Shown here: in pieces, positions 2,672 through 64,000 of the stretch
How positions within the stretch are numbered: position 1 is the first letter of the stretch
How the letters are laid out: every line of letters starts with the position of its first letter
DNA from: Microcoleaceae cyanobacterium
GTDB lineage: Bacteria > Cyanobacteriota > Cyanobacteriia > Cyanobacteriales > Microcoleaceae
Direction: 5' to 3'
Assembly: GCA_051652765.1 (NCBI GenBank)
Contig: JBOFUV010000131.1
Location: forward strand, 32,001 to 96,000
DNA: 64,000 bases
The notes under the pieces: generated by a model
What the model was told of the DNA's origin: nothing
The model's input: the letters and a program-made list of their open reading frames with translations, nothing else
The model's database searches: none
Translations under genes and position numbers: made by a program

Positions 2672-3589
2672 CTATTCTCTGAACCAGTTCTGGGCCAGAG
2701 CCTGATAGCCGATGAGTTTGTAAACGAGCTTGGCCGCAGTAAACTCTGAAACTACGGAATCTTGAACTGGAGCCAGTTCCATCACATCACAGCCAATCAC
2801 CTGATGGGTTGTAAATAACTGTTTGAGAAAGGCAAGCAGAGCGTACCAATGAAGTCCTCCCGGTTCAGGAGTCCCGACTCCCGGCATTAAGCTCGGATCA
2901 ATCCCATCTAGATCAATGGTGAGAAAGACCTCATTGGTGGGAATATTAGCGATCGCCGCTTGACTCCAGTCAGGATGAGTTGCCATCTCTCTGGCCCAAA
3001 TCACCGCAAGCTGCTTCTCTTTAATTAAAGTTGCTTCCTCTTGACACAGACTGCGAATCCCAATCTGAACCGTTGGCAATCCCATCTCAACCACGCGCCG
3101 CATCACGCAGGCATGGTTGTGGATTGACCCTTCGTACTCGTGACGCAGGTCGCCATGGGCATCAATTTGAACCACCGTAAAGGGTTTATCCAGAAGTTGC
3201 CGATAGGCTGCCACCACACCTGCGGTAATACTGTGTTCCCCACCCAGGGCAATCACAAATTTTCCGGCGGTTGCCAAATCAAACACAGCTTGCTGAGTGC
3301 TTCGTAACATTTCTTCAGCAGAAACGAACCCACGACGAGTGTCGGCGACGGGAGAATGGGTGTAAATTCCCACTGCTTCTCCCACCTCTCGATCCAGTTC
3401 ATCATCGTAGCATTCTAATTGTTGAGAGGCTTCTAGGATGGCTGCAGGGCCATGCTGACACCCTTGCCGGTAAGTTGTTGTCGCTTCATAAGGAATCGGC
3501 AGAATTGCAACCTGGGCTGTCTCAAACTCCGGGGTAATCTCAGAACCCAGAAAATCTAATGTTGATGCCGAGGTAGGGGTCGTGATCAT
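2672..3589 (-). CDS. speB: Agmatinase (ureohydrolase family)
   Basis: GGEHS, DAHGD and DLDGIDP...GTPEPGG metal-binding motifs. Confidence 0.92.
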   Translation of the reverse strand: MITTPTSASTLDFLGSEITPEFETAQVAILPIPYEATTTYRQGCQHGPAAILEASQQLECYDDELDREVGEAVGIYTHSPVADTRRGFVSAEEMLRSTQQAVFDLATAGKFVIALGGEHSITAGVVAAYRQLLDKPFTVVQIDAHGDLRHEYEGSIHNHACVMRRVVEMGLPTVQIGIRSLCQEEATLIKEKQLAVIWAREMATHPDWSQAAIANIPTNEVFLTIDLDGIDPSLMPGVGTPEPGGLHWYALLAFLKQLFTTHQVIGCDVMELAPVQDSVVSEFTAAKLVYKLIGYQALAQNWFRE

Positions 3590-55164: not shown

Positions 55165-55839
55165 ATGATTCTTTGTATTGCGGATGTTTTGACCCCAGAT
55201 GAGCTGCAGCAGATTAATGCTGTCCTCAAAACAGCTAGCTTTGTAGACGGTAAAGCAACGGCTGGGTGGCACGCTCGCTTGGTCAAGCACAATACTCAGT
55301 GGGCTAAAGATGCGGCGATCGCTCCAAAAATCAACAGCCTGATCCATGGAGCCCTAGCCCGGAACGCTCTGTTTCAGATGGCGGTTCGTCCTAAGTCAGT
55401 GAGTCAGCCCTTATTCAGTCGGTATGAATCGGGGATGTTTTACGGCACCCATGTGGACAATGCGGTCATGACAGACAATCAAGTGTTGATGCGCTCTGAT
55501 GTTTCACTCACGTTGTTCTTGAGTGATCCGACCACTTATCAGGGGGGAGAGTTGGTCATTGAAACAACCCAGGGGGAAGAGGTCTTCAAGCTAGAGGCTG
55601 GAGCAATCGTCACTTATCCTTCCTCAACGTTGCACCGAGTTGAACCGATTACCCAGGGGATACGCTTAGTGGTTGTTGCTTGGGTTCAGAGCCTAGTGCG
55701 AGACCCAAATCAACGAGAAATTTTGTTTGATCTAGACACTGCCCGCCAGACTTTGTTTCAGCAGTATGGCAAGACTCCAGAATTTGATCTGATTGCTAAA
55801 AGTCATGCCAACCTCTTGCGTCGGTGGATTGAGCTTTAG
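55165..55839 (+). CDS. piuC: PKHD-type Fe(II)/2-oxoglutarate dioxygenase (PiuC/YbiX-like)
   Basis: FVDGKATAG, YGTHVDNA, Y.GGEL, YPSSTLHRV.P.T.G.R and WVQSLVRD motifs. Confidence 0.9.
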   Translation: MILCIADVLTPDELQQINAVLKTASFVDGKATAGWHARLVKHNTQWAKDAAIAPKINSLIHGALARNALFQMAVRPKSVSQPLFSRYESGMFYGTHVDNAVMTDNQVLMRSDVSLTLFLSDPTTYQGGELVIETTQGEEVFKLEAGAIVTYPSSTLHRVEPITQGIRLVVVAWVQSLVRDPNQREILFDLDTARQTLFQQYGKTPEFDLIAKSHANLLRRWIEL

Positions 55840-55866: not shown

Positions 55867-55896
55867 ATTGACAAATATTTTCATTAGATTTAGAAT
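55867..55896 (+). promoter_or_regulatory. Sigma70 promoter overlapped by a Fur-box-like site
   Basis: TTGACA(55868)-N17-TAGAAT(55891); ATTGACAAATATTTTCATT at 55867-55885. Confidence 0.7.
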
Positions 55897-55942: not shown

Positions 55943-56713
55943 ATGAGCCACAGTAAAGCGAAGGTTTGGATTGGGATAGGTGCCTATATTCTTTCAGGCG
56001 CTAGTGTGATTACGGCTACTGCTGAGATCTCTTCCGCAGAAGCACAGATGGATCAGACTGACTCTGCGTTGAATAGCCCTGCGGTTCCCTCGTCCAGTAG
56101 CACACAGTTTGTCCAGATGCTAGCTCAAGGTGGAGAGGGCGGTGAGGGTGGTACTCCTGCATTTCAGGACAAGTTGAGCGGGAGTCAATTGGTGGATGCC
56201 CTGCGTCAGGGTGGCTACGTTATCTATTTCCGACATGCCCAGACTGAGAAAGACTACGCTGATCAGATTGATGCCAAAATGGGAGACTGCTCAACCCAAC
56301 GGATGTTGAGCGAAATGGGTTGGCAGCAAGCGAAGAATATTGGCCAAGCGTTTCAGGCATTAAAGATTCCTGTTGGTCAGGTTTACTCCAGTGAATATTG
56401 TCGGGCTTGGCAGACGGCAGACTTGGCTTTTGGTCGCCATCAAAAAGATCCGAGACTAAACTTTGAACGCGCTGAAGAATACACCGAAGCTCAGGTTGCG
56501 AAGATGCGAAGTGCCCTTACTCCCATGTTGGTAGCGGCTCCAGCCAGTGGCATGAATACTGTAATCGTGGGTCATGACGATGTATTTGAATCCGCGACGG
56601 GTATCTATCCTGAGCCTCAAGGGGTAGCCTATATTGTCAAGCCAGATGGCAAAGGCGGCTTTGAACTCATTGCCAACTTACTTTCTGACGAGTGGGGAAA
56701 ACTCTCTCGTTAA
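55943..56713 (+). CDS. Exported histidine phosphatase family protein with a GGEGGEGG motif
   Basis: Signal-like N-terminus; FRHA, SSEYCRAWQTA and VGHD motifs. Confidence 0.82.
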   Translation: MSHSKAKVWIGIGAYILSGASVITATAEISSAEAQMDQTDSALNSPAVPSSSSTQFVQMLAQGGEGGEGGTPAFQDKLSGSQLVDALRQGGYVIYFRHAQTEKDYADQIDAKMGDCSTQRMLSEMGWQQAKNIGQAFQALKIPVGQVYSSEYCRAWQTADLAFGRHQKDPRLNFERAEEYTEAQVAKMRSALTPMLVAAPASGMNTVIVGHDDVFESATGIYPEPQGVAYIVKPDGKGGFELIANLLSDEWGKLSR

Positions 56714-56740: not shown

Positions 56741-57592
56741 ATGCCTAGATTGCCCGATGCACTTTGGTTAAATGTCAGTCCTAGCTTTCAAGCCTTTGAT
56801 CGACCTCTTTTGCATGATTTATCTCAATCTGTCTCAGTTGCTCAGTGGGAATATTCTCAGACTATAGATGAACCTGCGTCCCTTGAAGTTGCTTTAGATC
56901 TACTGCATGACTATCTTGAGAAATGTTGTCTAGAATCTACTCCAGAAAACTTCAAGGTTCATCTTTTGGGTCATAGCACTGGCGGACTTCTGGGTTTACT
57001 TTATGCCCGCCGCTATCCAGAGCATGTCAGATCCTTAACTCTACTTGCAGTTGGGGTTCACCCCGCAGTGAACTGGCAGGCTCATTACTACGCCCTGCTT
57101 CAGTTTTTGCTGGGCGATCGCCAGATGTTGCTGAATCAGATGGTTCATAGCTTATTTGGTCATCCGGCCAAGCCAGTTGTTCCCAATTTAGTGGAAGCCC
57201 TAGAACAGGATTTAGGGCAAGCTCTATCTCCCCATTCTCTGTTTGATCGCGGCAGCATTCCGTCAGGTGGGGTTAATGTGCCCCTGTGCGTTTGTGGGAG
57301 TCGAGATGATGTGATCGTTGAGCCTAAGGAACTGGAGGGATGGAAACAGTTTTTAAAGTTAGGAGATCGGATTTGGCAGTGTCCCGGCGGAAGACACTTC
57401 TTCCACTATTTTTATCCTGAGCTAGTTAGTGAGCAATTGTTAGACTTTTGGAGTTTTTTGGAAGGGGCGAGTTCTCAACCTTGCAACGGCAAGAGTAGCT
57501 TAACCCGAAATTTGCTGAATCAATCTTTTCTCAATCAGCTTTTTAGGCGTGATTTTATGGAATTTACGGGTGAAACGGCAAGATTCTGTTGA
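56741..57592 (+). CDS. Alpha/beta hydrolase, IsiC-like
   Basis: GHSTGG elbow and GRHFFHY; iron-stress context; IsiC resemblance recalled from family knowledge, not searched. Confidence 0.75.
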   Translation: MPRLPDALWLNVSPSFQAFDRPLLHDLSQSVSVAQWEYSQTIDEPASLEVALDLLHDYLEKCCLESTPENFKVHLLGHSTGGLLGLLYARRYPEHVRSLTLLAVGVHPAVNWQAHYYALLQFLLGDRQMLLNQMVHSLFGHPAKPVVPNLVEALEQDLGQALSPHSLFDRGSIPSGGVNVPLCVCGSRDDVIVEPKELEGWKQFLKLGDRIWQCPGGRHFFHYFYPELVSEQLLDFWSFLEGASSQPCNGKSSLTRNLLNQSFLNQLFRRDFMEFTGETARFC

Positions 57593-57668
57593 ACATAACT
57601 TTGCTGAGCATAACTTTGTTGAACATAACTTTACTGAACATAGCTCTGTTGAACATAACTCTGTTGAA
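57586..57668 (+). repeat. 15-bp degenerate tandem repeat, about 5 copies
   Basis: gaacataactttgct/gagcataactttgtt/gaacataactttact/gaacatagctctgtt/gaacataactctgtt. Confidence 0.8.
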
Positions 57669-57722
57669 GCTGAAGTTGATTACAACCCAGCGGAACCTCA
57701 AGTGGATGAAGGCTCTGTTGTA

Positions 57723-58190
57723 ATGCAATCAGTTGTAGTTCAATCAGTTACCACCGATCAAGAACGAGCGGCCCTGTACGAGCAACGCTGGTTCGTCCTG
57801 AGAAAGCCCCTAGCCTTGGAACGGGGGACAGAACAAGATCAGTATGACCCTGAGCCGCAAACCTGTCACTTTGCGGCATCATGCAGCTCGCAAATGGTTG
57901 GGTCTGCTCGCTTTCGGCAACTGTCTCCAACGTTAGGTAGTATTGCTTATGTAGCTGTTTTGCCAGAGTTCCAACGTCGAGGCATTGGAACGGCCTTGGT
58001 AAAGTATGCGATTAAAATTGCTCGCCAGAGAGACTGTCAACAGGTGCGACTGATGAGTCGGAGCGATGCTATGGATTTCTACAAAAAGCTAGGATTCTGC
58101 GAAATCGGAGCACCCATTGACGTTCTCGGGATTCCCCACCAATTCATGTCCCTTAACTTGCTTTTTGCTCAGGATAAGGAGTTGAGTTAA
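57723..58190 (+). CDS. GNAT N-acetyltransferase (ElaA/YjcF-like)
   Basis: R..VLRKPL, VAVLPEFQRRGIG and FYKKLGF...IPH..M motifs; start trimmed to ATG at 57723. Confidence 0.85.
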   Translation: MQSVVVQSVTTDQERAALYEQRWFVLRKPLALERGTEQDQYDPEPQTCHFAASCSSQMVGSARFRQLSPTLGSIAYVAVLPEFQRRGIGTALVKYAIKIARQRDCQQVRLMSRSDAMDFYKKLGFCEIGAPIDVLGIPHQFMSLNLLFAQDKELS

Positions 58191-59157
58191 GTCCTGAATC
58201 TAACACCTTTAGCCTTAAATCCTTGATCGCATACTTCACAAATTCCGAAGCTTTTGTAGCATTACAAGACCCAATTAACGTGAGAGTTTTATGTTCATCT
58301 TTTACCAGTTGAGCTTTGCAAGAGTACACAACACTACTACAACGACTAAAAGCTAATTCAACCTGAATGACGGCTTTGTCTGCATCAGAACCAATGAATT
58401 GACAAGCAACCTTGTAACCCAGCCATTTCCACCCGTAAAACAGCAGGAGTTCTCGCTCTAAAACTTGAATCTCAATCGGCAAGATTCCCCAACCCCGATA
58501 AACTCGATTGAGGCAATTTGTGCTTCCAGTTTGGGTCAATATACACCGGAAGGAGCTGTCCTCTAGCAAACCATAATATCTGCCGTCCGGAAAATCAATC
58601 ATCGTTGGAGCAAACCGATGTCCACCGAAGTGACTACTTCTCCAAATCCGAACATTTTGAATTCCTAGCTCTGCAACTGTTAGGGTGGCTTGTTTATAGA
58701 ATGGAATCCCATATTTGGCACAACATTTATCATGGCTACCGTGGGTGCAAACGAGAATGTCTCTAGCCTGACTAGACTGAATTAATTGCTCTGGTAATTC
58801 ACCTGCAATGTATTGTCTTGTAGCTTCTGTTGCTTGTTCTAGACTGCTAACTTCGATTTCCCAACCATCATATCCGGTGGAGAATTCTTCTTGGATTTGT
58901 TCGTATATGATTAACTTTAGTTGACTTAAGTTCTGACGTTGATCTTGAGTAATTAATAGAAATCGAATGGGTAGTTTAGCCTGCTTCACCTCTTCGACTA
59001 AACACTTTAAACGATTAGGAATATGAGAAGACTCAAAGGCATCAGTAGCCCAAGGCATCGGATATTCAATCAAGATATAAGTCGAGTAGTTTGTTCCGCT
59101 CCCAATAATATCTTCATCAGCTTGTCGGCAAGCTTCAGCACAAAAGAACTTATTCAT
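58153..59157 (-). CDS. Sucrase/ferredoxin-like protein (Apd1/Aim32-type 2Cys-2His [2Fe-2S])
   Basis: CTHGSHDKCC (C-x8-C) and HFGGHRFAPT motifs. Confidence 0.9.
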   Translation of the reverse strand: MNKFFCAEACRQADEDIIGSGTNYSTYILIEYPMPWATDAFESSHIPNRLKCLVEEVKQAKLPIRFLLITQDQRQNLSQLKLIIYEQIQEEFSTGYDGWEIEVSSLEQATEATRQYIAGELPEQLIQSSQARDILVCTHGSHDKCCAKYGIPFYKQATLTVAELGIQNVRIWRSSHFGGHRFAPTMIDFPDGRYYGLLEDSSFRCILTQTGSTNCLNRVYRGWGILPIEIQVLERELLLFYGWKWLGYKVACQFIGSDADKAVIQVELAFSRCSSVVYSCKAQLVKDEHKTLTLIGSCNATKASEFVKYAIKDLRLKVLDSGLNSTPYPEQKAS

Positions 59158-59211
59158 GTTTACAAGTCATTTCTCTACAGGTTACTAATTGTTGTTGCTA
59201 ACATGTTGTTG

Positions 59212-60360
59212 CTAACAGTTAGGGTCTACTAAAACAATGCCTTCAAGGACTAACTGAGAGAGCAATGGCATCAAATCCAGCTCCCAATCAAATCCGGAAA
59301 ACCAATCTGTAACATCCCTGCCCGTAAACTGTTCCTGGCTGAATAGTTGTTCAACCCTAGTTTTGGACACCCCTCTTAATGAAACTTCTTTGCCGTTGGC
59401 AAACACCTGACATTCATCGTCATCAGATTCTTGTAAGATCTGAACCTTTTGAAAGGGGACAGTCTTAAATTGAGTGTCGATGCCGTGAGGAAATACGTTG
59501 AACCCGGCTTGATAGGGGAGAGCATATTGAGTCGTTGGCTGCCCCAAACTGTTTAGGTAGCGACTATACGCCTCACCAACGTTTTGATCCGTCAGATAGT
59601 CAGTCAACGCTTGAACGAGATCCTCAATTGCGGGCAACGTTCTGGGTTGTAACGGTAAACTCCTTCGCCACTGCTCCTGGTTGCTGAATTCCCCCGCTAG
59701 CCATTCCAAAAAGTGAATCCCAGTTTTTGGATGAACTCCCAAAGTCAGATGAATGGAAGGTTCCTCCACGGTCGCTGCATAGTGCCAATGACCCCGAGGA
59801 ATATACAACACATCTCCTGGACAAAGAACACAGCTCAAATCGGGATCACCCTCAGGTGGAGTCGCATCGGTAAACCGTTGACTGGGGAGTGGAGATTGGA
59901 ACGTTTCGGGGTAGACAGACCACTGCTTAGATCCTGCCACCTGTAATGCAAAAACTTCGTGGGTGTCGTAATGAAGCTTGAATCCTGGGTGGCTTGACCA
60001 AGAACAGTAGGCATTAACCTGAGTAGGAGACCCTAATTCAAACTGTATCCTTGCAGCAAAATTAGCAATCTCTGGAACATGCTTGTGAACCTGGCTAAAA
60101 ATGAGTGTGGCTCCCTGACGACACCAATGCAGCAATTTAGCATTTTCGGATTCATCCAGAACTTTGCCATCAATCGCGAGCCGTAAGTCAGGATACTTAA
60201 TTTGGTGAAAGTTGAGCAGATCGTTCAGATGCTCCCAAGAAAACAAGTTTGTGAAGCTTCTTTGACCTTTACTGGATAGAGCGATCGCCCGCTTTGTCCA
60301 ATTGTTTTGAAGAAACTCCTCTACGCTGGAGGGTTGCAAAAGAATAGCAAGGGCTTCCAT
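59212..60360 (-). CDS. JmjC/cupin-4 Fe(II)/2OG oxygenase (RoxA/YcfD-like architecture)
   Basis: HYD...GSKQW...PGDVLYIPRGHWH facial triad; C-terminal winged-helix-like segment. Confidence 0.88.
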   Translation of the reverse strand: MEALAILLQPSSVEEFLQNNWTKRAIALSSKGQRSFTNLFSWEHLNDLLNFHQIKYPDLRLAIDGKVLDESENAKLLHWCRQGATLIFSQVHKHVPEIANFAARIQFELGSPTQVNAYCSWSSHPGFKLHYDTHEVFALQVAGSKQWSVYPETFQSPLPSQRFTDATPPEGDPDLSCVLCPGDVLYIPRGHWHYAATVEEPSIHLTLGVHPKTGIHFLEWLAGEFSNQEQWRRSLPLQPRTLPAIEDLVQALTDYLTDQNVGEAYSRYLNSLGQPTTQYALPYQAGFNVFPHGIDTQFKTVPFQKVQILQESDDDECQVFANGKEVSLRGVSKTRVEQLFSQEQFTGRDVTDWFSGFDWELDLMPLLSQLVLEGIVLVDPNC

Positions 60361-60768
60361 AGTCTAGACGTTCTGGCGAAATGATTCTAATGCTCAAAGC
60401 TTCTGACATTCAAAGCTTTTGACACTCAACGACTCAGTTGATCCCACTTCTAGTCAAAGTTCTCACCTGACAACCCTTGTTGTTACAACTGTCGTTACAA
60501 CACCCATCCCCAGACTATAAACTCACCTGCATTGGGGGAATTGATCACAAGATCACTCCCCTCAATGGTTCAGACTCTGTGCCTAAGACCTGTTAGCAAA
60601 AAATACTAAACTAATTCAACAATCAAGACGATTGGCTGATCTAAATCAACTTTGCAAGCTGGGTTGACACTAGGAACCCAACAGACTTTTGAACGTGTTA
60701 GCTAACGATTAGGTCTTACACCCTTGACACCAGCTTACACAAACCTAATTCAGTTGGATAAACCTGTC

Positions 60769-60915
60769 CTAGTCTCCCCCATCTGAATCAACATTCAGGG
60801 GAGCTGCTGTATTCTGAGTCGTTCCGGTTGGAACAACATTCTTGATCTCAATCTGAATCTTGCTAGGACGAGATGGATTCAGGACTGAATCACTAGCACT
60901 GGATATTGTTGACAT
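60769..60915 (-). CDS. Unannotated 48-aa peptide, candidate RiPP-like precursor
   Basis: Hand translation MSTISSASDSVLNPSRPSKIQIEIKNVVPTGTTQNTAAPLNVDSDGGD*; AGGAG 7 nt before ATG; promoter upstream. Confidence 0.7.
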   Translation of the reverse strand: MSTISSASDSVLNPSRPSKIQIEIKNVVPTGTTQNTAAPLNVDSDGGD

Positions 60916-61011
60916 AGTTTGTCTCCTAAGTAGAATGCACCGATCGGGCTCTAAGCAACTCCTAGAAATCTAGGAATTAGACTTAGATGCGCTTACAAGT
61001 ATATCTAACAG

Positions 61012-61047
61012 ATTGTAGATATGCAACTGTTGCAAGTCTATCTCAAC
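61012..61047 (-). promoter_or_regulatory. Promoter with an overlapping Fur-box-like site for the peptide/JmjC unit
   Basis: Minus strand TAGACT(61040-61035)-N17-TACAAT(61017-61012); 19-mer GTTGCAAGTCTATCTCAAC at 61029-61047. Confidence 0.6.
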
Positions 61048-61175
61048 TAGAAGTGAGTAAAATCGTCATACACGTTGACCTGATGCCAACTCTAGCCAGA
61101 GGCTTACCCGAACGCTTCTCATCTTTTTAACCTTAGAGTAGATGACACCCTCAACTGAATGTACCTTTAATATCT

Positions 61176-61194
61176 ATTAAGAACTACTATCAAT
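61176..61194. promoter_or_regulatory. Fur-box-like site
   Basis: ATTAAGAACTACTATCAAT; minus-strand TTGACA adjacent at 61200-61205. Confidence 0.55.
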
Positions 61195-61340
61195 AAATTT
61201 GTCAAGATTTTAGAGGAGATTGGGCCTACACATTCAAGACATTCAGCCAGAATTTTACTTTGGATGAAGAATTTTAGGTTTTCTGACTGGGATACAACCC
61301 ACTATCAACTTGCTTTTTATGTAAAGAAATCGCAACAAAC

Positions 61341-61379
61341 TTGACAACACCATGAATTTTATTGCATATAGTTTTCAAT
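61341..61379 (+). promoter_or_regulatory. isiA promoter region with a Fur box
   Basis: TTGACA at 61341; ATTGCATATAGTTTTCAAT at 61361-61379. Confidence 0.65.
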
Positions 61380-61432
61380 AAGCAAAGTCTTATGCCAAGA
61401 TTTTTAGTCAGTAGTTAGCAGAGGGAGGTCGT

Positions 61433-62500
61433 ATGACCAGTATGGTGACTGATGCTTTTCCAGCCGAGGGGAGTGCTTATCCCTGGTGGGCTGGGAACGG
61501 GCGATTAGCGAGTTTATCGGGGCGCTTACTCGGTGCTCACGTTGCCCATGCAGGTCTGATTGTGTTCTGGGCAGGGGCTTATACTCTGTTTGAACTCGGG
61601 CAGTTCAATCCTGATTTGCCGATGTATGAACAAGGGTTAATTCTGTTGCCTCACCTAGCAGCCCAAGGTTGGGGCGTTGGTGCGGGAGGAGCCGTGACCA
61701 ACACTCACCCCTATTTTGTGATTGGAGTGTTGCATCTGATCAGTTCGGCCTTTCTGGGGTTTGGTGGAATTTTCCATGCCATTAAGGGGCCAGAGGTTCT
61801 GGAAAACCAATTTTCCTTCTTTGGCTATTCCTGGGAAGATGGCAAAAAAATGACCACTATCATTGGCATCCACTTGCTATTGCTGGGCAGTGGTGCATTT
61901 TTGTTAGTGGCCAAAGCAATGTTTTTCAATGGCCTTTACGATACCACAATCAGTGATCTGCGGGTGGTGACGAATCCAACCTTGAATCCGGCCAAAATTT
62001 TTGGCTATTTGTTTGGTGCAGAGGGCAAGTATTGGCTAGCTGCCGTGGACAATCTGGAAGATTTGGTTGGGGGTCACACCTACATCGGTTTAATGCTGAT
62101 CGGTGGTGGCATTTGGCACATTCTGACAGAGCCGTTTGGTTGGACGAAGCGACTGTTCATTTGGTCGGGAGAAGCCTATCTGTCCTATAGCATTGGGGCT
62201 GTGGCTTTGATGTCGTTCATTGCTGCGTTGTTTGTGTCAGTCAATACCATTGCTTACCCCCCTGAATTCTATGGGCCAACTCTGAACGTTGGACTGGAGC
62301 AGTTTCCCTATTTCCGGGGGGAACAGGGAATTTTAACCCCTCGGGTGTGGTTAGCAAATGCTCAGTTTTGGCTTGGCTTTTTCTTTCTACAAGGTCATAT
62401 CTTTCATGCTCTGCGAGCTGCGGGATTTGATTTTCGCACGGGCAAGCGTGTCCAAGACTTGGTGTTGGCAGCCAATGCGCCGAAGGAGGTGACTTCATGA
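61433..62500 (+). CDS. isiA: IsiA/Pcb family chlorophyll-binding protein (CP43' type)
   Basis: [27 protein letters not shown] and [10 protein letters not shown] motifs; short E-loop, so not psbC. Confidence 0.88.
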
Positions 62501-63498
62501 CCGTTGCAGTCTCCCAGAAACAAGTCTCCCAGAAACAATATGACTGGTTGGCCGGAAATGCCCGCTTCACCCATCTCTCTGGCAAGCTCCTCGGGGCCCA
62601 TGTTGCCCACGCGGGGTTGATTGTTCTTTGGGCTGGAGCAATGACCTTGTTTGAAGTTTCAAAGTTTGATCCGAGTCTTCCAATGCCGGAACAAGGGTTA
62701 ATTTTGTTACCTCACTTAGCCAGTTTGGGAATTGGGGTGGGAGCCGGAGGCCAGATTGTGGATACCTATCCCTATTTTGTGATTGGTATGGTGCATTTGA
62801 TCAGTTCGGCGGTGTTGGGTGCAGGAGGGCTGTACCACACGTTGCTCGGTGCTGACGTTTTACCTCAGGACAACTCCTTCTCTGGGTTCTTTGGCTATGA
62901 CTGGACAGATAAGGGCAAGATGACCAGCATCTTGGGAATTCATCTCCTGTTGCTAGGGCTTGGGGCTTGGTTATTGGCGGCGAAGGCCATGTTTTGGGGT
63001 GGGCTCTATGATCCAACCGTTGAACAGGTGCGCGTTGTGACTGACCCCAGCCTGAACCCGGTTCGGATCTTTAGCTACTTGTTGGGACTACACGGTATAA
63101 AAGGCATGGCCGCCGTTAATAACTTGGAAGACTTGGTTGGAGGCCATGTCTGGGTTGGATTCCTGTGTATTCTAGGGGGTCTGTGGCACATTGGCACCAA
63201 ACCCTTTGCTTGGGCAGAACGAATTCTGTACTGGTCGGGAGAGGCTTATCTCTGCTACAGTCTGGGCGCTTTGGCCTACATGGGTTTCCTGGCTGGATAT
63301 TTTGTCACATTCAACACGGTGGCTTATCCCGAAGCCTTTTACGGGCCAGTCGGTGGCGTGAACGAATTAGGGGCAATCAGCGCTCGCACGTGGTTAGCCA
63401 ATAGCCATTTTGTCTTGGCAGGGGTGCTCTTGCTGGGGCACTTCTGGCACGCAATTCGAGTTCGAACCTTTGCTGCAACGGAGGTAGATTACCGATGA
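62497..63498 (+). CDS. isiA: IsiA/Pcb family protein, second paralog
   Basis: Same family motifs; ATGA overlap with the upstream gene. Confidence 0.88.
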
Positions 63499-64000
63499 CT
63501 GCAACTGCATCCTTTTCATCTCCTCCGTCTCAGGCTAAATCTGTGCAGAAATATGGCTGGTGGGCGGGTAACGCTCGACTGACTGAGCTTTCTGGCAGGC
63601 TCCTAGGGGCTCATATTGCTCAAGCTGCCTTAATTGTGTTCTGGGCAGGAGCCTATACCTTGTTTGAGCTTTCCCAGTACACTCCAACTGAACCTCTGTA
63701 TTCTCAAGGGTTGATTCTGCTGCCTCACCTGGCTAGTTTGGGAATTGGTCTGGGAGAAGGGGGTCAAGTCGTGAACACCTATCCCTATTTTGCGATTGGG
63801 GTGCTGCACTTGGTGAGTTCAGCCGTTCTGGGAGCTGGGGGACTTTACCATGCCTTACTGGGGCCAGAACAGTTGCCAGAAAACCAGACGTTCTCTGGTT
63901 TCTTTGGCTATGACTGGCGCGACCAGAACAAAATGACCACGATTATCGGCATTCATTTGGTATTGCTGGGGTGTGGGGCTTTATTGCTGGTCGCCAAGGC
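63495..64000 (+). CDS. isiA: IsiA/Pcb family protein, third paralog (truncated by the window end)
   Basis: Hand translation [46 protein letters not shown]...; ATGA overlap. Confidence 0.88.

Follow-up and report, generated by a model that had tools for sequence, protein, structure and literature searches.

A conserved cassette of an acidic peptide, a JmjC oxygenase, and a [2Fe-2S] protein as a candidate metal-starvation system in filamentous cyanobacteria

A 64,000-nucleotide stretch of a Microcoleaceae cyanobacterium genome (GenBank assembly GCA_051652765.1, contig JBOFUV010000131.1, positions 32,001 to 96,000; the whole stretch is referred to here as the window) carries a cassette in which a gene for a 48-residue peptide precedes, on the minus strand, the genes for a JmjC-type Fe(II)/2-oxoglutarate (Fe/2OG) oxygenase and a Suc_Fer-like [2Fe-2S] protein, with a GNAT acyltransferase gene converging from the other side. 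This four-gene module is conserved over two orders of filamentous cyanobacteria, and its established parts are a conserved peptide gene, a catalytically complete JmjC gene, a gene for a bis-His-type 2Fe-2S protein, and Fur-family boxes in relatives. We give even chances to the reading that the cassette is a metal-starvation system for a ribosomally made, enzyme-modified acidic peptide. A more specific version, in which it is a ribosomal counterpart of the cyanochelins, with a JmjC-made β-hydroxy-Asp Fe(III) peptide, Fur control, and a 2Fe-2S reductase of the CctD family that releases the iron, is tentative and rather unlikely. Literature searches found no paper describing the peptide family or the peptide/JmjC/Suc_Fer cassette, and both appear to be undescribed; leader-dependent Fe/2OG hydroxylases carrying a recognition element (RRE) for peptides that are made on the ribosome and modified after translation (RiPPs), as well as JmjC enzymes that tailor RiPPs, are already known.

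Two samples underlie the counts given below. A JmjC homolog is present in 17 of 41 genomes of relatives, and a wider survey with one genome per species yielded 228 JmjC relatives, the best 80 of which make up the 80 loci to which counts refer. These 80 loci include Trichodesmium erythraeum IMS101, Okeania, Dapis, Microcoleus, Tychonema, Moorena, Symploca, Leptolyngbya JSC-1, Scytonema, Stigonema, and Brasilonema, among others.

A Conserved Gene for a Small Peptide

The original prediction proposed a hidden gene in an open reading frame (ORF) at 60769-60915 on the minus strand, and this ORF encodes exactly the 48 residues quoted there. It is a genuine conserved gene. On the strand of the JmjC gene and 5′ of it, 76 of the 80 loci have a homolog that begins with ATG, which answers positively the proposed check for a conserved small ORF beside orthologous JmjC and Suc_Fer genes, and in three of the four loci without one the available upstream sequence is shorter than 770 nt. 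The predicted ribosome-binding site is also there, as a Shine-Dalgarno AGGAG at 60927-60923 (minus strand), 7 nt 5′ of the ATG. In the first 20 loci, a small same-strand upstream ORF with the same motifs was found in 11, all with a GGAG-type site before the ATG, and over the 76 peptide loci a Shine-Dalgarno-like motif, matched with a loose regular expression, occurs in 72. The median dN/dS is 0.31 over 865 pairs of peptide genes restricted to dS values of 0.2-1.5, with 99.9% of the pairs below 1, and the insertions and deletions among relatives are whole repeat units. The peptide is rare across the phylum (9 of 401 genomes in an even sample). A protein search returned 100 clusters, in which every named member is a “hypothetical protein” and none carries a Pfam domain; a Pfam scan of six peptides at E up to 10 found no family, EF-hand included, and an ESM Atlas search with the peptide gave no usable match.

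The anatomy of the peptide was taken over 77 sequences with 4082 residues in total. All 77 contain the strand [S/T]-[K/R]-I-x-[I/V/L]-x-[I/V]-x-x-[I/V/L/F], with the consensus S-K-I-Q-I/V-E-V-K-E-I, which in the window reads SKIQIEIKNV (S18-V27; 60835-60864, minus strand) and in which I20 is the sole invariant column in an alignment of 73 sequences. A variable linker of 10-12 residues separates this leader-like strand from an acidic unit, which follows D-x-D-G-x-D in 72 of the 77 peptides and the longer [N/D]-x-D-x-D-G-x-D in 62. There is one such unit in 50 peptides, two in 11, and three in 11, while the remaining five have a looser acidic tail. It is only ever the acidic unit that is repeated (two or three copies in 22 of 77) and never the leader strand, so that the leader/core look attributed to the peptide in the original prediction is borne out by the family, where the K-I-Q-I-E strand is the best conserved part. 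A gene-encoded peptide with a leader conserved in 77 of 77 sequences and a core unit in one to three copies has the form of a RiPP precursor. Cysteine is nearly absent, with three in the 4082 residues. In the window, the unit is L40-D48 (LNVDSDGGD; 60772-60798, minus strand), and the peptide in this genus stops at unit position 8 (…NVDSDGGD). Among the units long enough to reach position 12, 68 of 70 have Asp or Glu there; in repeated forms this acid is D3 of the next nine-residue unit, and in single-unit forms a short tail provides it as its E. Calcium loops of the EF-hand type have ligand residues at positions 1, 3, 5, 6, and 12 and a hydrophobic residue at position 8, and the ligand-type residues of the acidic unit, at 1-3-5-6-12, match that spacing.

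A further motif is seen in the 5′ untranslated region (UTR) of the peptide gene. The sequence [A/T]-[G/C]-G-G-T-[G/T], mostly GGGTG and then TAC, lies 10-20 nt 5′ of the Shine-Dalgarno site in 36 of 76 loci by a loose regular expression (window about 60935-60950; L085:3640-3682), and in the Trichodesmium/Okeania clade a hairpin replaces it.

The JmjC Oxygenase

The JmjC gene (59212-60360, minus strand; 382 residues; PF08007, 6e-24) encodes a putative Fe/2OG oxygenase of the ribosomal oxygenase (ROX) type. Its iron-binding triad is intact, as had been claimed, with H130, D132, and H193 invariant in 62 homologs, and K145, also invariant in the 62 sequences, is the counterpart of the 2OG lysine of NO66 in the alignment. 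Among solved structures, a family profile matched those of NO66 (4.6e-28), MINA53 (3e-25), Bacillus subtilis YxbC (6e-21), YcfD (2.5e-8), and FIH (1e-4), and a Foldseek search with the JmjC model gave the same ranking. The model (mean predicted local distance difference test score, pLDDT, of 76) combines a JmjC barrel with helices at 214-272 and with a C-terminal domain at 295-382, which is the ROX build. The sequence and fold features of the ROX (JmjC_2) class are present: a PF08007 domain with an H-x-D…H triad and a 2OG Lys, a helical middle domain, and a C-terminal winged helix.

The C-terminal winged-helix domain, which is RRE-like (residues 290-382; 59215-59493, minus strand), was also folded alone (pLDDT 84) and consists of four strands followed by three helices. 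Its best fold match is the C-terminal domain of MINA53 (Z 9.2, root-mean-square deviation 2.5, 84 residues aligned); YcfD-like and NO66 domains score 6.9 and 6.8. Many RREs come next after MINA53, with Z scores of 7.3 for PbtF, 7.2 for McbB, 6.8 for TigE, 6.4 for ThcOx, 6.1 for TbiB1, and 5.5 for PqqD, which denotes likeness to the RREs rather than membership among them, since Z scores below 8 are common between unrelated folds. RRE folds deemed legitimate have been found fused to PF08007 domains, with bacterial homologs in RiPP-like contexts, according to a 2025 survey (PMC12710340).

A model of the complex of the JmjC protein, the peptide, and Fe reached an ipSAE interface score of 0.59 (runs of 0.58, 0.61, and 0.59), whereas the best of three controls scored 0.00; the runs share at least 45% of their contacts, and the partner pLDDT is at least 53. 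In the calibration of this score, 116 of 157 solved complexes and 2 of 215 mismatched pairs reached the mark; of those 157 solved complexes just 18 had values of 0.60 or less, as did both of the passing mismatches, and the present model used custom alignments and a riding Fe ion, unlike the calibration set.

Two further observations concern the JmjC family. In three Okeania/Dapis-type genomes (G012, G022, and G023), the JmjC winged-helix domain is also encoded separately, in one to three additional copies between the JmjC and Suc_Fer genes; these are about 90-99 residues long, and some contain stops (for example, L025:8349-8621, minus strand). In a distant JmjC clade with 39-45% identity, the upstream peptides carry the strand R-I-[E/Q]-I-x-I-E-D-[I/L] and D-rich tails (L013:829-1038, plus strand; L015:2750-3010 and 3116-3502, both minus strand; L032; L034). 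An ABC exporter adjoins in two of three of these loci, Suc_Fer and GNAT are absent, and two of the L015 peptides have N-termini that resemble signal peptides.

The Suc_Fer-Like Iron-Sulfur Protein

The Suc_Fer-like ORF (58153-59157, minus strand; 334 residues) begins 54 nt past the JmjC stop codon on the same strand and encodes a thioredoxin-like [2Fe-2S] protein (PF06999, 6.7e-31; 108 bits against a cut-off of 34.9). It had been called a sucrase-ferredoxin, and the ligand set agrees with this, as C137, C145, C146, H176, and H180 are invariant in 43 sequences. C137/C146 with H176/H180 presumably correspond to the bis-His 2Fe-2S motif C-x8-C…H-x3-H of Apd1/Aim32, and the residues fit the binding of a bis-His-type [2Fe-2S] cluster by the window protein.

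The Suc_Fer gene follows the JmjC gene in 75 of the 80 loci. Among the 41 relatives, orthologs at E below 1e-100 are found in 13, of which 12 are exactly the genomes with a JmjC ortholog. The 13th genome, G030, has a lone ortholog with 48-50% identity (L124:5004-5987, minus strand) beside a 703-residue multicopper oxidase, with neither a JmjC nor a peptide gene alongside. G030 also encodes a Suc_Fer paralog with 41% identity across 309 aligned residues. Its gene is flanked on one side by that of a TonB-dependent receptor carrying an AMIN domain and on the other by those of a Peripla_BP_2 protein plus an MFS protein, and the arrangement in G039 is the same. In a phylum-wide search with this paralog, the 30 best loci include a binding protein in five, a receptor in four, and a JmjC-like gene in three. 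In 12 of these 30 loci, JmjC-related ORFs precede the Suc_Fer gene: one locus (L141) is an intact cassette, and in the other 11, all of family f7 (L133-L155), the ORFs are short and related to parts of the JmjC protein; one in-frame form lacks residues 84-183, the H-x-D motif included (examples at L148:2544-3506, minus strand, and L134:866-1399, plus strand). These short ORFs are either decayed oxygenases or retained domain proteins.

A protein of this class, CctD, belongs to the uptake cassette of cyanochelin B, and the class is reported to recur in cyanobacterial siderophore transport loci; the authors of that preprint call the role of CctD unresolved and mention that it might be to reduce iron (bioRxiv 10.64898/2026.07.30.741596). 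In cyanochelins B and C, according to a second preprint, the iron is chelated by two β-hydroxy-Asp residues (bioRxiv 10.64898/2026.07.24.740629).

Promoters, Fur-Family Boxes, and the Spacer

A TAGACT-N17-TACAAT promoter had been assigned to the peptide gene. The sequence is present at 61040-61012, but it is a 9/12 match and the pair is not conserved in relatives. Because the region holds four promoter-like sites, no more than the 5.8 ± 2.7 of shuffled sequences, the pair alone does not rise above chance. The promoter predicted from conservation across clades, including three genomes of the window’s genus, consists of TTGCAT and TATACT separated by 17-18 nt; in the window (60998-61026, minus strand), the -35 lies at 61026-61021 and the -10 at 61003-60998, with 17 nt between them. 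The exact TTGCAT-N16-19-TATACT occurs in 19 of 75 upstream regions.

When the spacers between the peptide and JmjC genes were aligned, a 21-nt AT-rich palindrome came to light, whose core is TTGA-n-AA-n3-TT-n-TCAA. Any site on either strand that matched in at least 14 of its 21 positions was called a box. By this rule, 78 of the 80 loci have a box no farther than 90 nt from the JmjC start, at a median of 5 nt from the ATG (background of 0.086 per scanned window), and 60 of 74 loci have one between -260 and -30 relative to the peptide start (background of about 0.28 per scanned window). The box upstream of the peptide gene in relatives is 2-3 nt from the -35. Trichodesmium erythraeum IMS101, with its locus at about 4.681-4.686 Mb of NC_008312.1, and Microcoleus vaginatus are cultured carriers in which the boxes are intact. 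Compared by eye, the consensus and the Fur box of Synechocystis exbB (PMC8634477, Table S7) share 18 of 21 positions, and the futA1, futA2, bfd, and isiA boxes of the same paper are similar to it; likewise by eye, the TTCTCAAT half-site is present in the Anabaena FurA consensus printed in PMC4005646. Predicted Fur-family boxes sit at both transcription units in relatives, which would fit metal-starvation control of the cassette by Fur or Zur.

A position weight matrix (PWM) was trained on the JmjC-proximal sites, for which it is circular by that training. Over the 5.03 million positions of the genome, 34 score at least 16 bits, 73 at least 14, and 851 at least 8, and 40 genes flanking the top sites were examined. 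One match lies between divergent futB-like and futC-like genes (19.7 bits) and one 5′ of znuA (21.7 bits). The joint second-best site of the genome, also at 21.7 bits, is in the window at 55867-55887, where it heads a string of His_Phos_1, hydrolase, and GNAT genes. In the divergent spacer between the peptide and isiA-like genes, boxes are found at 61174-61196 (15-16/21; 14.5 bits), about 150 nt upstream of the -35, and at 61359-61381 (15/21; 11.2 bits), 52-74 nt 5′ of the isiA-like start. The Fur-box-like 19-mer on which the original prediction had relied (61029-61049, minus strand) is a weak, degenerate copy of the family box, with matches at 13 of 21 positions and 6.5 bits, and its position beside the -35 is homologous to that of the relatives’ boxes. 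By these scores, the window genome has lost or weakened its own cassette boxes. A scan of 60916-61432 with the Escherichia coli Fur consensus gave at best 11/19, at chance level.

The 408-nt spacer between the peptide and JmjC genes (60361-60768, minus strand) is present as a single copy in the genome and is predicted to fold stably (z = -3.2), with hairpins of -16 and -21 kcal/mol. A Rfam scan of 60300-61450 at E up to 1 found no family, and a fold alignment of the spacer between the peptide and JmjC genes gave no consensus structure. Of 76 loci, 68 have one hairpin 3′ of the peptide gene with an energy of -10 kcal/mol or lower, a count made without a shuffled control, and a T-rich tail follows it in only 16. 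The hairpin after the peptide gene may set the ratio of peptide to enzyme transcripts.

Neighboring Genes

The GNAT gene (57549-58190, plus strand; PF00583, 4e-18; FeeM PF21926, 33 bits) converges on the Suc_Fer gene, with overlapping 3′ ends, and the convergent neighbor is found in 69 of the 80 loci. When it is read from the GTG at 57549, a 15-nt tandem repeat at 57590-57668 (5.3 copies, 84% matches), between the alpha/beta hydrolase and the GNAT core, yields odd EHNF repeats. The true start is probably the ATG near 57723, since orthologs are 144-166 residues long. A search with the GNAT query against longer proteins found no fused Suc_Fer-GNAT forms, which is weak evidence. The alpha/beta hydrolase gene (56741-57592, plus strand; PF00561) occurs in 5 of 80 loci, those of the window’s genus and a few others. 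A gene for a secreted His_Phos_1 protein (55943-56713) begins 56 nt 3′ of the box at 55867-55887, with the hydrolase and GNAT genes next in line on its strand, and a gene for a PiuC/YbiX-type Fe(II) dioxygenase (55165-55839) ends just before that box.

On the other side of the cassette, three tandem CP43-like genes of the IsiA/Pcb type run divergently from the peptide gene (61433-64000, plus strand; PF00421; TIGR03041 at 424 and 389 bits against a cut-off of 335). The divergence of the unit from an isiA array therefore stands for the window, but isiA adjoins only 1 of the 80 related loci and its neighborhood is accordingly not a family trait. A wider region of 30-55 kb was examined for an iron island, and none was found. 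About 2.4 kb past the window end, an isiA-like gene of the photosystem II family (C131:98432-99541) is followed by two boxes (18.6 and 19.5 bits) and a flavodoxin gene, in an isiA…isiB layout (C131:98432-100636). In five loci of the Trichodesmium/Okeania/Dapis clade (L023-L027), a TRAP dicarboxylate transporter pair (DctQ and DctM) lies directly 5′ of the peptide gene, which could mean 2-oxoglutarate supply or coincidence.

A Proposed Mechanism and Its Alternatives

In the mechanism that we propose for the cassette as a metal-starvation system, the invariant strand S-K-I-Q-I/V-E-V-K-E-I would dock, as one more β-strand, on the winged-helix, RRE-like domain at the C-terminus of the JmjC protein, and the Fe(II)/2-oxoglutarate center would then hydroxylate side chains in the C-terminal unit or units N-x-D-x-D-G-x-D-x3-[D/E]. 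The likeliest product would be β-hydroxy-Asp (or Asn), giving a hard-oxygen metal site that would resemble the β-hydroxy-Asp pairs of the cyanochelins. The Suc_Fer-like protein might donate electrons, either for the reduction and release of Fe(III) from the peptide or for the re-reduction of the oxygenase iron, and the GNAT might acylate the peptide. Which residue is modified, which metal (Fe, Ca, or Zn) is bound, where the product acts, and what the GNAT does are all points that we infer. The unit was said to lack a protease or exporter, and indeed neither is conserved across the 80 loci; since none is present, the product may act as a whole peptide in the cell or use machinery encoded elsewhere.

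Several observations weigh against this reading of the cassette. Many of the top PWM sites adjoin genes unrelated to metals, among them those for three RTX proteins, a 5′-nucleotidase, and a phosphonate-type binder, and the PWM captures Fur-family boxes generally and does not separate Fur from Zur, as the match at znuA demonstrates. The window lacks a JmjC-proximal box (at most 13/21, below 4 bits) and its peptide-proximal box is weak, and the upstream regions of the GNAT genes are not enriched in boxes (4 of 64 at 10 bits). The nearest solved relatives of the JmjC protein hydroxylate His or Arg in ribosomal proteins and not Asp. The modeled complex of the peptide on the JmjC protein lends weak support to binding and does not define an interface. 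Neither a protease nor an exporter nor a receptor is conserved in the cassette across the 80 loci. Suc_Fer is retained without an intact JmjC gene in G030 and many Nostocaceae, and its role need not depend on the peptide, while CctD itself was dispensable for cyanochelin uptake in Synechocystis, a heterologous host, according to the preprint (bioRxiv 10.64898/2026.07.30.741596). In addition, the acidic unit is at least as similar to a Ca(II) loop as to an Fe(III) site.

This last similarity underlies an alternative in which the peptide is a small Ca(II)-binding peptide or switch resembling an EF-hand loop, which the JmjC protein hydroxylates or merely binds, tuning Ca by O2, Fe, or 2-oxoglutarate, with no siderophore-like role. 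It would explain the ligand-type residues at unit positions 1, 3, 5, 6, and 12 (acidic at 12 in 68 of 70 units), the overlap of the nine-residue repeats, by which D3 of one unit is position 12 of the preceding one, and the lack of export or uptake genes in the cassette. Three RTX calcium-binding proteins among the 40 genes by the top box sites point the same way; their HemolysinCabind genes (C150:2853-5087, C71:19285-20121, and C65:6821-7846) make up a larger part of the 40 than the genome share suggests. The alternative is nonetheless quite unlikely in our estimate, as six peptides gave neither an EF-hand nor any other Pfam match at E up to 10, unit position 8 is Asp where EF-hands have a hydrophobic residue, and the box type and the Suc_Fer family indicate iron or zinc. 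We assign a similarly small probability to a secreted or signaling RiPP unrelated to metals, to which the JmjC enzyme would add hydroxyls or a cross-link and whose leader removal and export would depend on genes elsewhere. Fe/2OG enzymes that tailor RiPPs, JmjC enzymes included, are described in the papers on BipG (PMC12707348), CzlI (PMC11575548), and MppG (bioRxiv 10.64898/2026.10.04.756588); multi-core precursors are present, and the distant JmjC clade with D-rich peptides has an adjoining ABC exporter in two of three loci. Yet a protease or exporter accompanies the cassette in 0 of 80 loci, the core residues are only acidic and small, with no Cys and few aromatics, and the boxes are of the metal-regulator type.

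The JmjC protein might also be a true ribosomal oxygenase acting on a ribosomal protein, with the peptide as a decoy, inhibitor, or regulator rather than a substrate. The original prediction had named grouping with RoxA/YcfD and action on a ribosomal protein as a refuting outcome, and the first part of this was found, in that the protein groups with the ribosomal oxygenases NO66, MINA53, and YcfD, its best sequence and fold matches, which have the same three-domain build and whose C-terminal domain is a winged helix too (Z 9.2 to MINA53); this grouping is not proof of a ribosomal-protein substrate. We hold this alternative to be very unlikely: the gene is in only 17 of 41 relatives and is hence not a housekeeping gene, it is tightly linked to the peptide gene (76 of 80 loci), and the repetition of core units is hard to explain in a regulator. 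The gene linkage argues for the peptide over a ribosomal protein as the likely JmjC substrate. Least probable of all, to the point of being practically nil, is that the ORF stands open by chance and that what is conserved is no more than the 5′ leader of the JmjC gene. That the ORF is small and matches no family would agree with this, but the ATG and Shine-Dalgarno site are conserved, indels come in whole repeat units, and the dN/dS is 0.31, with 99.9% of 865 pairs below 1; together with the upstream homologs in 76 of 80 loci, the Shine-Dalgarno conservation and the dN/dS refute the chance-frame reading.

If the cassette is a ribosomal counterpart of the cyanochelins, Trichodesmium, Microcoleus, Moorena, and many other filamentous cyanobacteria would have a gene-encoded peptide that chelates or buffers iron. 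If the metal-starvation reading is true, ecologically dominant cyanobacteria, the ocean N-fixer Trichodesmium included, would carry a cheap, small, gene-encoded metal-binding peptide switched by metal starvation. The role of a bacterial ROX-type JmjC protein off the ribosome, the function of Suc_Fer/CctD proteins in cyanobacterial siderophore loci, and a ribosomal route to β-hydroxy-Asp metal ligands would all become testable, and since the system has four genes only, it would be easy to rebuild in E. coli.

Comparison With Known Systems

The predicted boxes of the cassette share with the Fur boxes of Synechocystis and Anabaena the form of a 21-23-nt AT-rich palindrome, as the latter are given in PMC8634477 and PMC4005646; the cassette boxes are predicted sites, which the PWM cannot distinguish from Zur boxes. 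The cassette Suc_Fer protein belongs to the same family as CctD, PF06999/IPR009737 (bioRxiv 10.64898/2026.07.30.741596), but it differs in context, since the cassette gene follows a JmjC gene and is not accompanied by a transporter. The iron ligands of the cyanochelins are β-hydroxy-Asp pairs, one motif being β-hydroxy-Asp-Gly, and the peptide offers D-x-D-G-x-D beside a hydroxylase (bioRxiv 10.64898/2026.07.24.740629). Cyanochelins are lipopeptides made by nonribosomal peptide synthetases and have known export and uptake genes, whereas the ribosomal route is hypothetical.

NO66, MINA53, and YcfD/RoxA (PF08007) are like the cassette JmjC protein in sequence, fold, three-domain build, triad, and 2OG lysine. 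They hydroxylate ribosomal His or Arg and have no dedicated small-peptide gene, whereas the cassette JmjC gene is patchily distributed and locked to the gene of an acidic peptide. BipG of biphenomycin and CzlI of curacozole resemble the cassette enzyme class in the JmjC-type Fe/2OG hydroxylation of a ribosomal precursor (PMC12707348 and PMC11575548). In those accounts, each carries out one of many tailoring steps in an actinobacterial cluster, with ornithine and Phe as the targets, while the cassette JmjC protein is the only obvious modifying enzyme of its unit.

MppG and its precursor MppE from Moorena producens PAL can also be set beside the cassette. MppG is a cyanobacterial Fe/2OG enzyme that hydroxylates a peptide and that has both a His/Asp/His triad and, at its C-terminus, an RRE (bioRxiv 10.64898/2026.10.04.756588). 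In that preprint, MppG is strictly leader dependent, and the leader is modeled as an added strand on the RRE sheet. As described there, MppE differs in its 77-residue Nif11 leader, its lanthionine-cyclized ACWRWSG core, hydroxylation at the Trp Cβ, and a large multi-enzyme cluster, whereas the cassette combines a short leader and an acidic, Cys-free core with 2Fe-2S and GNAT partners.

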